This document shows, piece by piece, positions 3,240 through 19,264 of a stretch of 32,000 bases of DNA; position 1 is the stretch's first letter; the number at the start of each line of letters is the position of its first letter. This DNA comes from Ktedonobacterales bacterium. Lineage in GTDB: Bacteria; Chloroflexota; Ktedonobacteria; Ktedonobacterales; JADMIN01. Location: contig CP126532.1 of NCBI GenBank assembly GCA_030167145.1, positions 3,720,001 to 3,752,000 of the forward strand, read 5' to 3'. The notes beneath the pieces are model-generated. The model was not told the DNA's origin, searched no databases, and was given only the letters and a program-made list of their open reading frames with translations. The position numbers were made by a program, and so were the translations under genes.

Positions 3240-3311
3240 GCGTAACAGCGGGCGCGAACCATTGCGGAGCAGGCGCGCGAAAGGCAGCCCGGAAGCGAAG
3301 GGAGTGCCTTT

Positions 3312-4205
3312 GTGTTCGGGAAACTGCCTCACATAGCGGTGCCGTCCGATGTGCTCTTCACCATCGGTGGCTACCCCGTCTATAATACCTTCCTCATCAC
3401 GATTCTTAGCGCGCTGGTCATCATCGGCATGTTCTACATCGCGCTCCGCAAGAGCCGCATCATCCCCCACCGCGCGCAGAATCTCGTCGAGTGGATCTTC
3501 ACCTCGATCCTCAACCTCTGCTATGAGGTCGCTGGCAAGAAGAACGGCCGCCGCTTCTTCCCTTGGGTGCTCACCATCTTCCTCCTGGTGCTGATTAGCA
3601 ACTGGTGGGAAGTCATCCCCGGCATCGAGACCATCGGCACTAAGTCCGCCGAAGTGCCGGGATGCCCGGAGCAACTCAGCGGCATCCTGCTCTGGGGCAA
3701 CAGCGCGAACTGCATCGTGCCGTGGCTGCGCCCGCCCTCGACCGACCTCAACTTCACCATCGCCCTCGCCGTGATCTCCGTCGTCGCTACCCAGATCTAC
3801 GGATTCAAGGTGCTCGGTGCGGGTAAGCAACTTGGCCGCTACTTCACGTTGAAGGATGGCCCGATGGGCCTGGTCGTCGGCCTGCTGGAGCTGGCGCTCG
3901 AACCCTTGCGCATCCTCTCGCTCAGCTTCCGTCTCTTTGGCAACCTCTTCGCGGGCGATGTGCTGCTGCTGGTGATCGGCTTCCTGTTGCCGGTGGTCGG
4001 CGTCATCCCGTTCTACTTCCTTGAACTCTTCGTCGGCTTCATCCAAGCCTTCGTCTTCGCCTTCCTCACGCTCATCTTCATGACCCTCGGCACCACGGCC
4101 CACGGCCACGAAGACCACGAGGAAGAGCACATGGCGGAGGTGGCCCATGAAGACCATGCGCGCGTCGAGCACGCGCTCAAGCGCGAGGAGGTTCCCGTCG
4201 CGTAG
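3312..4205 (+). CDS. atpB: F0F1 ATP synthase subunit a
   Basis: Polytopic membrane protein with the essential Arg motif LSFRLFGNLFAGD. GTG start preceded by GGGAG. It occupies the first position of the atp gene order. It has an unusual His/Glu-rich C-terminal tail. Confidence 0.9.
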   Translation: MFGKLPHIAVPSDVLFTIGGYPVYNTFLITILSALVIIGMFYIALRKSRIIPHRAQNLVEWIFTSILNLCYEVAGKKNGRRFFPWVLTIFLLVLISNWWEVIPGIETIGTKSAEVPGCPEQLSGILLWGNSANCIVPWLRPPSTDLNFTIALAVISVVATQIYGFKVLGAGKQLGRYFTLKDGPMGLVVGLLELALEPLRILSLSFRLFGNLFAGDVLLLVIGFLLPVVGVIPFYFLELFVGFIQAFVFAFLTLIFMTLGTTAHGHEDHEEEHMAEVAHEDHARVEHALKREEVPVA

Positions 4206-17324: not shown

Positions 17325-17354
17325 CGTGGGGTGGATGCTTGCGTCCGCCCCACG
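17325..17354 (+). terminator. strong GC-rich stem-loop downstream of the binding-protein gene
   Basis: CGTGGGGTGGATGC-tt-GCGTCCGCCCCACG forms a ~13-bp stem including two G-U pairs. There is no U-tract, so it may be a stabiliser or terminator of a non-canonical type. Confidence 0.35.
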
Positions 17355-17374: not shown

Positions 17375-17413
17375 GACCTAACCCCCGGCCCCTTCCCTAC
17401 GAGGGAAGGGGAG
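17375..17413 (+). repeat. REP-like 39-nt palindromic element (copy 2)
   Basis: GACCTAACCCCCGGCCCCTTCCCTacgAGGGAAGGGGAG, matching the reverse complement of 7650-7688 at 37/39. A half-copy (GAGGGAAGGGGAG) follows at about 17446-17458. Confidence 0.75.
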
Positions 17414-18832
17414 GGCGGAGGCCGCTCCTCCCGCGCCGCTGCTATGAGGGAAGGGGAGCGCAGCACGACGACGTTGGCGGTGGGTGAGCGCGGGCTGGCG
17501 GGTGGGTGGCTTTTTGGGGTGTGGAGTGTGCGGTGGGCAGACAGGAATGTCCACCCCACCAGTTGCCGATTCTGCCGATTTGCGCAGAGAGGGAGTTGCC
17601 GATTTTGCCGATTTTGCCGATTTTTGATGTTGGGGCGTGTGGGACGTGTACATCCGGCCATCAATGGCCGGAGCACGGTCGAGGCCAAGGAGGCGGATGA
17701 TCTGGCGCTGGACGTTGAGGGCGACGCGCAGGTAGGCGTCGGGACGGCAGGGGATGTGCGGTGGGCGGACCTCTCCCCCCAGCCCCCTCCCCTGCGAGGG
17801 GAGGGGGAGAGGAGTTGCCGATTCTGCCGATTTTTCAGGAAGGGTGGTGGGGAAGGCTTGGGCGATGAGCGATTGGTGGAGGGTGGCATCGGTGTCGTAG
17901 CTGGCCCAGGCGGCGGCGAGGAGTTGGCGCAGCCCTTCGAGGGCGGTGGTGAGCTGGGCGGTGTAGGTATGGAGGGAGTCGGCGCGGATCTCGTCCTGGA
18001 TGGCGGCGATCCAGGCGCGGATGGTGCGCTGGGGGACGCCAAGCTGTTGTGAGATGGCGGGGGCGCGCAGGCCCTGGCAGTGGAGGGCGAAGGCTTGGTC
18101 GCGCAGCGGGATGCGGTCGAGATGGGGGGCGTGGGGGGTATGGGCGTTGTCGGCGCGCTTGGCGCTCTCGGCCATCAATGGCCGGAGCACGGGCGAAGGG
18201 GCATGAATGCCCAGACGCGCTGTGGCAGGAGTGGCCGATGGCGCAGGCGGGCAGACAGGAATGTCCGCCCCACCAGTTGCCGATGCTGCCGATTTGGCGG
18301 TGCTCTGGGCAGAGGCGGGAGTTGCCGATGTGGCCGATTTTTGGATGATGGTCCGCGCTGGTGATCCAGCAGGCGATGCGGGTATCGCCCCTACGGCGGC
18401 AAGGTGAGAGGGTTGGGGAGTTGCCGATGCTGCCGATTTTTTGTCAGAGGTGGAGGTGTAGAGTTCCTGGGCGAGGAGTTGGGCGAGGGCGTGGTCGGCG
18501 TCCTGGGTGGCGGGGTCGTCGGGGTCGAGGGAGTCGAGATGGTCGAGGGCGGCGGCGAGGTGGGGTGGGAGGGAGTGGAAGAAGGCGAAGAGGCTGGCGG
18601 GGTCGGTGTAGTCGAGGGCGTGGAAGGCGTCGAGGAGGGTGGGAGATGGGGGCTGAGAGATAGGGTGCGGCGCGGTGAGCAGGTCAGGCGCTGATGGTGT
18701 GGATGGTGTGGATGGCGCGGTAGGTGGCGCAGATGTTCCCGCTGGATCAGCAGCGGGCGATGTGGACATTGCCTCTGCAGTGGCAAGGGAGATGGGGGTG
18801 ATGGGGGTTGGATGAGCAAGGATGGCAGACAT
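17378..18832 (-). CDS. hypothetical HTH-domain protein interleaved with DNA repeat modules (terminase-small-subunit-like or IS630-N-terminal-like HTH; possibly degenerate at the 3' end)
   Basis: The ATG at 18832 is preceded by AGGAGG with an 8-nt spacer. The HTH-like segment reads LRDQAFALHCQGLRAPAISQQLGVPQRTIRAWIAAIQDE. A later segment is AYLRVALNVQRQIIRLLGLD. Six KSAxSAT peptides are encoded by a recurring DNA motif. The last ~90 codons consist only of repeat elements, so the true end is uncertain. Confidence 0.4.
   Translation of the reverse strand: MSAILAHPTPITPISLATAEAMSTSPAADPAGTSAPPTAPSTPSTPSAPDLLTAPHPISQPPSPTLLDAFHALDYTDPASLFAFFHSLPPHLAAALDHLDSLDPDDPATQDADHALAQLLAQELYTSTSDKKSAASATPQPSHLAAVGAIPASPAGSPARTIIQKSATSATPASAQSTAKSAASATGGADIPVCPPAPSATPATARLGIHAPSPVLRPLMAESAKRADNAHTPHAPHLDRIPLRDQAFALHCQGLRAPAISQQLGVPQRTIRAWIAAIQDEIRADSLHTYTAQLTTALEGLRQLLAAAWASYDTDATLHQSLIAQAFPTTLPEKSAESATPLPLPSQGRGLGGEVRPPHIPCRPDAYLRVALNVQRQIIRLLGLDRAPAIDGRMYTSHTPQHQKSAKSAKSATPSLRKSAESATGGVDIPVCPPHTPHPKKPPTRQPALTHRQRRRAALPFPHSSGAGGAASALPFPRREGAGG
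17535..17581 (+). repeat. 47-bp composite repeat, copy A (hairpin GACAggaaTGTC module plus AGTTGCCGATTCTGCCGATTT motif)
   Basis: GGGCAGACAGGAATGTCCACCCCACCAGTTGCCGATTCTGCCGATTT, matching 18249-18295 at 45/47. Confidence 0.85.
17594..17625 (+). repeat. AGTTGCCGAT(TTTGCCGAT)2TTTT motif copy with three 9-bp units
   Basis: AGTTGCCGATTTTGCCGATTTTGCCGATTTTT. The 9-bp unit TGCCGATTT is reiterated. On the minus strand it reads KSAKSAKSAT. Confidence 0.85.
17655..17678 (+). repeat. 24-bp repeat with palindromic core GGCCATcaATGGCC, copy 1
   Basis: CGGCCATCAATGGCCGGAGCACGG is identical to 18169-18192. The offset between the copies is 514 bp, which is not a multiple of 3. Confidence 0.85.
17770..17812. 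repeat. G/C-rich bulged hairpin module inside the repeat locus
   Basis: Perfect 11-bp stem CCCCCTCCCCT-gcg-AGGGGAGGGGG (17783-17807), extended by CCTCT/AGAGG across an 8-nt bulge. GTGCGGTGGGCGGAC lies immediately before it and a GCCGAT motif copy immediately after. Confidence 0.7.
17813..17835 (+). repeat. AGTTGCCGATTCTGCCGATTTTT motif copy
   Basis: Direct match to the motif consensus, in the same orientation and frame as the other five copies. Confidence 0.85.
18169..18192 (+). repeat. 24-bp repeat with palindromic core, copy 2
   Basis: CGGCCATCAATGGCCGGAGCACGG, identical to 17655-17678. Confidence 0.85.
18249..18295 (+). repeat. 47-bp composite repeat, copy A'
   Basis: GGGCAGACAGGAATGTCCGCCCCACCAGTTGCCGATGCTGCCGATTT, matching 17535-17581 at 45/47. 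Confidence 0.85.
18320..18342 (+). repeat. AGTTGCCGATGTGGCCGATTTTT motif copy
   Basis: Match to the motif consensus, in the same orientation and frame. Confidence 0.8.
18419..18442 (+). repeat. AGTTGCCGATGCTGCCGATTTTTT motif copy
   Basis: Match to the motif consensus, in the same orientation and frame. Confidence 0.85.
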
Positions 18833-18861
18833 GGTTGGGAACCTCCTGGTTGATGGCGAGA

Positions 18862-18941
18862 GAACCTAACCCCCGGCCCCTCCTCGGAACGGCTCGGAGG
18901 GGCCGCTCTGCGTGCCCTTCCCTACCAGGGAAGGGGAGAGG
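18862..18941 (+). repeat. REP-like element (copy 3) carrying a nested ~35-nt hairpin insertion
   Basis: GAACCTAACCCCCGGCCCC, then the insert TCCTCGGAACGGCTCGGAGGGGCCGCTCTGCGTGCC, then CTTCCCTaccAGGGAAGGGGAGAGG. The insert has its own stem, CCCCTCC/GGAGGGG. Its core CCTCGGAACGGCnCGGAGGG recurs in the 39-bp tandem at 19029-19110. Confidence 0.7.
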
Positions 18942-19028
18942 CGCGGTCCGCAACGCCTGATGGGCCGCCGAGACGGCGGCGGTACATGGGGCGCGGCGAT
19001 GAATGGCCGGCGCAGGTGAATGGGCGCA

Positions 19029-19110
19029 CGCCTCGGAACGGCGCGGAGGGACTGCGCTCCGCTTGCCCGCCTCGGAACGGCGCGGAGGGACTGCGCTCCG
19101 CTTGCCCGCC
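19029..19110. repeat. perfect 39-bp tandem duplication (about 2.1 units)
   Basis: The unit CCTCGGAACGGCGCGGAGGGACTGCGCTCCGCTTGCCCG occupies 19031-19069 and 19070-19108 and is identical in both. Each unit contains the GCGGAG/CTCCGC stem. Confidence 0.9.
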
Positions 19111-19235: not shown

Positions 19236-19264
19236 AGTATAGAATATTTGTTCGAGATATGCAA
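19236..19264 (-). promoter_or_regulatory. candidate sigma-70 promoter reading leftward toward the HTH ORF
   Basis: On the minus strand: TTGCAT (19264-19259), a 17-nt spacer, then TATACT (19241-19236). It lies in the only AT-rich patch of the divergent intergenic region and implies a leader of about 395 nt. Confidence 0.45.

Follow-up and report, generated by a model that had tools for sequence, protein, structure and literature searches.

A 32-kb stretch of a Ktedonobacterales metagenome-assembled genome (MAG; 5.07-Mb contig CP126532.1, positions 3,720,001 to 3,752,000), called the window below and always meant at its full length, carries six co-oriented copies of a short direct repeat inside one gene for a helix-turn-helix (HTH) protein of 484 amino acids (17378..18832, minus strand; NCBI WIG60847.1, OJF49_003595). 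All six copies are translated, and the codons of the repeat place its constraint on the nucleotides rather than on the peptide. With less than even confidence, we tentatively read the copies as a cognate binding-site array for the small-terminase-like HTH oligomer that the gene encodes, held in frame in translated linkers. This reading is favoured because of the nucleotide constraint, the specificity of the repeat for one protein family, the depth of its conservation, the joint switching of variants within single genes, their co-variation with the recognition helix, the fold of the protein and the arrays that occur outside the family.

An exact pattern scan of the window places AGTTGCCGATNNNGCCGATTT at 17561, 17594, 17813, 18275, 18320 and 18419, all six matches on the plus strand, where 100 shuffles that preserve dinucleotides average 0.02 matches and never exceed one. 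Neither strand of the 32 kb contains a further copy, in agreement with the initial annotation, which had listed six same-strand copies at these starts and nothing similar elsewhere. One copy had also been described as consisting of three 9-bp units, and a seventh match at 17603, with two mismatches, is indeed the third 9-bp unit of a threefold TTGCCGATT run (17596-17623). The array unit is made of two to three tandem 9-bp half-sites, (A/T-rich)-CGGCA-N4-CGGCA-A, also written CGGCAGAATCGGCAAC; it is a direct 9-bp repeat, and the motif contains neither a palindrome nor terminal inverted repeats. The distances between copies (33, 219, 462, 45 and 99) are all multiples of 3, and translation bears out that every copy is read as K-S-A-x-S-A-T, through the codons AAA TCG GCx xxA TCG GCA ACT, in the minus-strand open reading frame (ORF). 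The phasing that had seemed striking is therefore real, but it is less mysterious than it first appeared, because the copies share one translated ORF and arise by in-frame events, which keep the phase. A possible helical phasing of the copies (of about 30 spacings, nine are divisible by 21, where some 4 would be expected) was judged too weak and was not used.

In the order of translation, copy 1 (18419..18439; KSAASAT, amino acids 132-138) directly follows the N-terminal domain and has a counterpart at the equivalent position in the same-genome paralog P0001, and copy 2 (18320..18340; KSATSAT, amino acids 165-171) has a CGGCC variant as its first half-site. Copy 3 (18275..18295; KSAASAT, amino acids 180-186) is joined to a hairpin module at 18246-18274 and is missing from P0001, while copy 4 (17813..17833; KSAESAT, amino acids 334-340) lies in a disordered loop that leads from the long helix of the core to its return helix. 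Copy 5 (17594..17623; KSAKSAKSAT, amino acids 404-413) is the one with three tandem 9-bp units, and P0001 has two such units at this position; copy 6 (17561..17581; KSAESAT, amino acids 418-424) is joined to a hairpin module at 17532-17560 and is again missing from P0001. All six are encoded on the minus strand. We considered and rejected P0001 as an ortholog with extra DNA conservation of the motif: it is a paralog from the same genome, and because all conserved blocks are equally 91-92% identical the comparison is silent on the motif.

The evidence for constraint on the nucleotides comes from the wider family. A profile of the protein core, built without the motif columns, recovers 405 relatives from 1.84 billion representatives, and 35 of the top 153 carry 83 strict motif peptides ([PSKA]A[EKQR][ST]A[TMKN]), nearly all of them in the C-terminal tail, against 1.4 expected from shuffles. 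For DNA we sampled eight family genes of the motif-bearing clade from at least six genomes, amounting to 8.5 kb of genes and 104 kb of flanks. CGGCA-N4-CGGCA-A is present in every one of these genes, and GGCA-N4-CGGCAA occurs 29 times within the genes versus once in the flanks, where the lone copy lies 15 nt past the stop codon of a family gene. All in-gene copies are on the sense strand and in one codon phase. When the copies are located by peptide, their codons read NCG GCA NNA NCG GCA A.. almost without exception, so that alanine is encoded by GCA in 60 of 60 motif codons as against 28 of 464 (6%) in the remainder of the same genes. The variation that does occur falls at first or second codon bases (S/P, E/K/A/T/I, S/T), while the wobble bases are fixed across the family genes, the AAAACG form included; outside the motif, codons are common at only 50-74% of identical residues. 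Because the wobble bases are fixed while first codon positions vary, the codon evidence puts the constraint on the nucleotides and not on the peptide. The shared 16-mer, rare codons included, persists even though core identity between the genes is only 30-37%. Variants of the motif also switch together within one gene: all four copies at one locus (L086) are CGGCC...CGGCC, and all three at another (L100) are of the AAAACG type.

The type of motif that a gene carries is tracked by one residue of its protein. In the recognition helix RT[IV]R-X-W the variable residue X, at helix position 6 in the model, differs between genes with mostly E-type copies (GAA[T/A]CG) and genes with mostly K-type copies (AAAACG). 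Alanine at X is found in 14 E-major and no K-major genes, and another residue in 6 E-major and 14 K-major genes (Fisher p = 4e-5, uncorrected for phylogeny and drawn from perhaps 5-7 independent clades). With one exception, P0054 (Asp, one ET copy), genes that have His, Asn, Asp or Tyr at X are of the K type, and in the motif-less subfamily X is mostly Arg. This co-variation between sequences is suggestive of a link between the HTH and the motif.

An HTH in the host ORF had been noted from the start, and both a profile match and a structural model agree with it. Pfam HTH_23 matches amino acids 246-278 of the window protein just under threshold (E 4.6e-5, 23.6 bits against a cutoff of 24.6), and the relatives P0003 and P0005 have precomputed PF13384 matches. 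The conserved family core (amino acids 236-392; 17657..18127, minus strand) was modelled with AlphaFold (AF2) from a 63-sequence alignment at a predicted local distance difference test (pLDDT) score of 88. It consists of a three-helix HTH (encoded at 17999-18097) whose third helix extends over 59 residues, a loop of about 37 disordered residues that contains motif copy 4 and an element like the repetitive extragenic palindromic (REP) sequences, and a return helix. A further folded domain at the N-terminus (amino acids 61-130; 18443..18652, minus strand) was found only in the window gene and P0001 and has a third-position GC content (GC3) of 0.90; the folded parts are joined by disordered linkers made of DNA repeats. 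The modelled layout weakly resembles that of the small terminases (TerS). The top full-length PDB match in Foldseek is the small terminase of phage G20c (probability 0.97, E 0.1, template-modelling (TM) score 0.36-0.41), viral predicted structures in BFVD give weak TerS and HTH matches (E 7e-3 or worse), Terminase_5 scores 18.0 bits against a cutoff of 20.3, and terminase matches in PHROG have E values of 0.018-0.06. A sequence search of PDB with the host protein gave no match, and Pfam, PHROG and PDB sequences yielded no significant match to a terminase small-subunit sequence family, so that the layout may be called small-terminase-like while membership in the TerS family is not established. 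A PHROG match annotated as RNase E (phrog_645, E 8e-4) spans the core from the HTH into the helix; we gave it no weight as evidence of function. Five relatives of 600-1300 amino acids (P0020, P0063, P0092, P0125 and P0130), in which the HTH part of the profile matches 9-12 times, appear to be tandem arrays of the family HTH.

Outside the family the motif is rare overall. A pattern scan of a genome collection with 18 specified bases returned at least 75 loci, nearly all chance singletons in unrelated phyla, and only L058 (Ktedonobacterales) and L009 (Chloroflexia) were informative among the matches listed. At least three arrays were found outside the family, in a linker of SucA, in an ORF in the spacer between serA and hemE, and at L009. 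The first two belong to MAG GCA_035310125.1 (the source of L084, L058 and L088), which also carries E-type family genes (P0013); that arrays of the same variant lie elsewhere in a genome with such genes speaks for the copies being sites of the encoded protein. In this MAG the hypervariable N-terminal linker of SucA contains EKSAESAT and FPAESAT, written in the motif codons of the family, whereas the closest SucA homolog has only KSAETAT and the other SucA homologs examined have no motif. The spacer ORF (VKQ30_03410, P0155; 149 amino acids) contains eight motif copies and has a good Shine-Dalgarno (SD) sequence and a stop codon that overlaps the hemE start, and it is without a coding signature. 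The array at L009, in a Chloroflexia MAG, consists of nine degenerate copies upstream of an ABC ATPase gene, at spacings of 42-62 nt that are not multiples of 3 and in mixed codon phases; the element therefore exists independently of a reading frame. Peptide words of the motif are shared by 1445 proteins in 5.8 billion (by a concatenated-peptide query, which is insensitive to dispersed single copies), and among these candidates only P0154 and P0155 scored, both of them tandem arrays. A metagenome scan for the exact 21-mer returned the same SucA locus two times and nothing else, and viral motif scans gave chance singletons only. On one metagenome contig (L083, 999-4378) the family gene P0002 immediately precedes a gene for a fused E1 2-oxoacid dehydrogenase, and the spacer between the two contains a motif copy (2126), which may be compared with the motif in the linker of SucA, the 2-oxoglutarate dehydrogenase E1, at L058 (5446 onward); the association of the family with E1 dehydrogenases may be a functional link or a coincidence.

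If the copies are sites for the encoded protein, its HTH would be the binder and DNA, rather than RNA, the target. The recognition helix, which in the model runs into a long helical hairpin, would give the architecture of ring- or bundle-forming small-terminase-like oligomers, and such an oligomer would present several HTHs in one orientation, an arrangement that suits direct repeats. The sites would lie in the body of the gene, within the DNA for the disordered linkers and the C-terminal tail; because they fall within linker- and tail-coding segments they are translated and must stay in frame, and new copies would therefore arise by in-frame duplication. By binding its own gene the oligomer could exert autoregulation in cis, by roadblock or wrapping, or could build a nucleoprotein complex. 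The oligomer would also bind paralogs that share its motif type and a few other loci, namely the 5' region of sucA and the serA-hemE spacer in the related MAG.

Several observations weigh against this proposal. The copies are spaced irregularly, at 9 to 519 nt, in contrast to classical operators or iterons, and all of them lie on the sense strand of the local gene, which a double-stranded DNA site does not need and an RNA element would. The promoter region, the usual place of autoregulatory sites, has no copy, and one gene read from the large ITITRRPDGPEN-tail subfamily (L099) has no array in it or near it. The resemblance to small terminases is statistically weak (Foldseek E 0.1, TM 0.36-0.41), the co-variation of X with the motif is confounded by phylogeny over its perhaps 5-7 clades, and the isolated HTH of SF6 TerS has little sequence specificity for pac repeats (PMC4737164). 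The initial annotation had offered as one of two readings a binding-site array of iteron, centromere or pac type. The array part of that reading gains from the nucleotide constraint, the tie to one family and the tracking by the recognition helix, but its strict pac, centromere and iteron forms are unsupported: phage genes are not found nearby, the viral, phage and plasmid collections searched hold no family members, and the spacing is irregular. Iteron-type origin features were likewise not seen at the locus, with its spacings of 9 to 519 nt and its chromosomal position, and a search of PLSDB plasmids returned no homolog of the family.

The other reading offered, an in-frame-tolerated insertion module, bears on an alternative that we consider unlikely yet far from negligible, namely that the array is without function, a coding minisatellite or small mobile module that perpetuates itself and whose 9-, 30- and 51-nt units spread by slippage or gene conversion and persist only in a tolerant disordered linker, in a harmless frame. 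The segments that hold the copies are translated, since motif copy 4 sits between two conserved core helices and the tails lead on to conserved C-terminal motifs (PALTHRQRR in the OJF49 paralogs, PWMM-stop in P0003, P0004, P0008 and P0009). They are nevertheless mosaics of genome repeats, with a GC3 of 0.53-0.72 versus 0.81-0.90 in the folded parts and without a coding codon signature, as the minisatellite would have it. The copy number has changed in frame by one 9-bp unit between paralogs (KSAKSAKSAT versus KSAESAT), the two extra copies of the window gene come within a 51-nt motif-plus-hairpin module that occurs there twice (94% identical, one copy being 17532-17582) and not at all in P0001, 30-nt tandem units are seen in the arrays of relatives (L088), and the hypervariable SucA linker has gained a copy in one lineage. 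Slippage cannot, however, homogenise dispersed copies with unique sequence between them, and the same rare-codon 16-mer is kept across genes whose cores are 30-37% identical. The 104 kb of flanks also hold a single copy, though they contain other repeat elements, and the peptide words occur in few of 5.8 billion proteins. Of the module first proposed, then, translation in disordered linkers without a coding signature and the one-lineage gain in SucA stand, and the analogy to Rickettsia palindromic elements (RPEs) finds no support in a motif that is non-palindromic, present once in the 104 kb of flanks and shared as words by 1445 proteins in 5.8 billion. Were the minisatellite true, it would be a warning that long tails of hypothetical proteins in high-GC genomes can be in-frame repeat mosaics.

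An RNA-level cis element in the sense transcript is also an unlikely explanation: an RNA-binding protein, a ribonuclease or a small RNA of complementary sequence would bind the copies, and so control how stable the HTH mRNAs and a few others are or how they are translated. It would account for the sense-strand position of the copies everywhere, in the HTH genes, in sucA, in the ORF upstream of hemE and in the L009 array, for a constraint on nucleotides rather than amino acids, and for the leader-like positions of the L088 and L009 arrays. These are, however, only about four independent contexts, which would all have the motif on the sense strand by chance with a probability of about 0.06, and orientation within the family is explained by descent. 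A search of Rfam gave no match, inspection reveals only a 3-bp CCG/CGG stem that the KSA variant does not have, and the co-variation with the recognition helix is not predicted unless the HTH itself binds RNA.

Selection for a short linear peptide motif, [IK][PS]AE[ST]AT, serving in the disordered tails as a docking or Ser/Thr phosphorylation site, seems very improbable. One frame is used in three contexts (the HTH family, SucA and the 149-amino-acid ORF P0155), and the tails are translated, with conserved PWMM or PALTHRQRR ends after them. Yet the synonymous positions are invariant and include a rare alanine codon, while the amino acids vary (KSAESAT, IPAKTAM, AAKTAN, PANSAT); this is the reverse of the pattern that selection on the peptide would leave and so contradicts it, and in the L009 array the phases are mixed and the spacings not divisible by 3. 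That the array is a true phage or satellite pac site in a small-terminase gene, starting headful packaging, is hardly credible despite the TerS-like architecture, the weak Terminase_5 match and the pac direct repeats that overlap the terS start in SPP1 (PMC4737164), since ten family loci that we read have housekeeping genes as neighbours and no terminase large subunit or phage gene beside them, IMG/VR gives one marginal HTH-only match and INPHARED none in 50,697 phage genomes, and one chromosome carries three paralogs at unrelated housekeeping loci.

By analogy, the window array would be of a known kind, that of cis-sites within the gene of their binding protein, in a chromosomal, multi-copy form in linkers and tail that differs from the precedents. 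The RepA_N plasmid initiators (pAD1, pSK41) have iterons (oriV) inside the poorly conserved central part of repA, an arrangement reportedly described by Weaver et al. in 2009. As is proposed here, a DNA-binding protein has its sites repeated, in frame, in that variable part of its own gene which codes for a linker; the iterons are, however, tightly clustered, semi-palindromic and parts of plasmid origins, and the proteins have another fold, whereas our locus has no plasmid and its copies are irregular and non-palindromic. In spo0J/parB an HTH protein has its cognate site within its own coding sequence, as is proposed here, but that site, parS, is one palindrome of 16 bp, and the fold of ParB is that of a CTPase; neither applies here. 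RPEs are palindromic elements of 100-150 bp found across many unrelated genes. They, like miniature inverted-repeat transposable elements, share with our motif the translation of repeated DNA as a tolerated extra peptide, including one lineage-specific gain in a housekeeping gene (SucA), and differ from it in that ours is 16-21 bp long, non-palindromic, concentrated in one gene family, deeply conserved, without a broad host range and, in the DNA read, low in copy number. Uptake signal sequences and DNA uptake sequences, which occur about once per kb genome-wide, resemble it as short words kept as DNA, with a strand bias and preferred frames inside genes; here about 104 kb of flanks contain a single copy, and the arrays are local. 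In phage P22, pac lies within gene 3. The pac/terS systems (SPP1/SF6 pacL-pacR, P22) have direct repeats in or over the gene of an HTH protein with an oligomerising helical core, as is proposed for the window gene, and HTHs in one orientation would suit same-strand repeats in both. In SPP1 three sets of direct repeats span promoters and the start of the small terminase gene (PMC4737164), and the coding sequence is dual-purpose, as it would be here. The differences are that our family is chromosomal and multi-copy, without phage context or a terminase large subunit (TerL), that the repeats, whose sequence is strictly conserved, run through linkers and tail, and that TerS membership is not established.

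A broader proposal, which we advance with considerable doubt, is that a chromosomal family of small-terminase-like HTH proteins in Ktedonobacterales and other Chloroflexota carries its own in-frame sites, with matching arrays at a few housekeeping loci, namely sucA and the region upstream of hemE. If so, it would be a previously undescribed DNA-binding system that targets its own gene, in which protein specificity and intragenic sites co-evolve, and it might be a recognition system for packaging initiation or gene transfer that has been domesticated. Should the encoded protein bind its sites, a TerS-like HTH family without characterised members, with at least 405 clusters in a phylum that has been little studied, would acquire a function and a recognition code, the latter hinted at by the single helix residue that tracks E-type versus K-type motifs, and disordered linkers could be seen to act as a landing zone for regulatory DNA. 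On the same condition the gene would be a natural case of one stretch of DNA under dual constraint, as binding site and as harmless in-frame linker, and the inverted conservation that it displays (fixed wobble, free first positions) could help to find hidden cis-elements inside other genes.

Gene calls for 17378-18832 disagree: NCBI annotates 484 amino acids and JGI the last 265, from Met220, together with a 71-amino-acid antisense ORF (18479-18694, plus strand) that looks spurious. The long form is a real protein, because its start and an upstream block are conserved with the paralog, its N-terminal domain has a GC3 of 0.90, and no stop codon falls between that domain and the HTH core. An SD sequence, AGGAGG, with its ATG (18830..18848, minus strand) is conserved in the paralog, and the upstream block TTGCAT-17 nt-TATACT (19236..19264, minus strand), also common to both, is a putative promoter by its sequence; a promoter consensus scan did not call it. 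The gene lies on the chromosome between an ABC-transporter binding-protein gene and recQ, and its same-genome paralogs, P0001 (OJF49_002391, 450 amino acids) and P0005 (OJF49_004054), are at unrelated loci. Homology with P0001 extends from the shared upstream block to a REP-like element past the stop codon, with 91-92% DNA identity over conserved blocks and many in-frame indels in the linkers, and this comparison disclosed no terminal inverted repeats or target duplication that would mark a mobile element around the gene. In the 5' leader, which has grown from about 130 nt in the paralog to about 380 nt, units of a 39-nt repeat, GCCCGCCTCGGAACGGCGCGGAGGGACTGCGCTCCGCTT (18877-19103), have been inserted as two near-identical tandem copies and one diverged copy.

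Other repeats accompany the motif. The REP-like hairpin GGCGGGCAGACAGGAATGTCCGCCCCACC (18246..18274), translated as GGADIPVCPP, abuts copy 3, and its second copy (17532..17560), translated as GGVDIPVCPP, abuts copy 6. In both occurrences the hairpin, GGGCAGACAGGAATGTCC(A/G)CCCCACC, adjoins the ...GGCAACT end of the motif, and a related inverted copy is found at 17326-17350; the composite could have been duplicated, or the hairpin element could insert at ...GGCAACT. A 28-nt module with a palindrome, CGGCCATCAATGGCCGGAGCACGG, is present at 17655-17682 and 18169-18196 (96% identical) and is read in two frames of the one ORF, as PVLRPLMAE (amino acids 213-221) and RAPAIDGRM (amino acids 385-393); relatives have similar peptides, two VLRPLMAE in P0001 and VPRPFMAG in P0021. 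In contrast to the KSA motif, this REP-like DNA element is thus tolerated in more than a single frame. G/C-rich palindromic REP-like elements of the CCCCTTCCCTACGAGGGAAGGGG type (17382-17418, 17427-17461, 17777-17811 and 18907-18941) flank the gene, one being intragenic and translated as PLPSQGRGLGGEVRPP, and the stop codon of the ORF falls within such an element; peptides like their translation (GEGPGVR, GKGPGVRS) recur in the tails of relatives. Perfect 18-nt repeats lie at 17376-17393 and 18864-18881. The contig of the motif-less family member at L099 has at its end (3294-3397), just past a VWA-domain gene, a perfect tandem repeat of 13 nt, AGCAGATCGAGTG, in about 6-7 copies.

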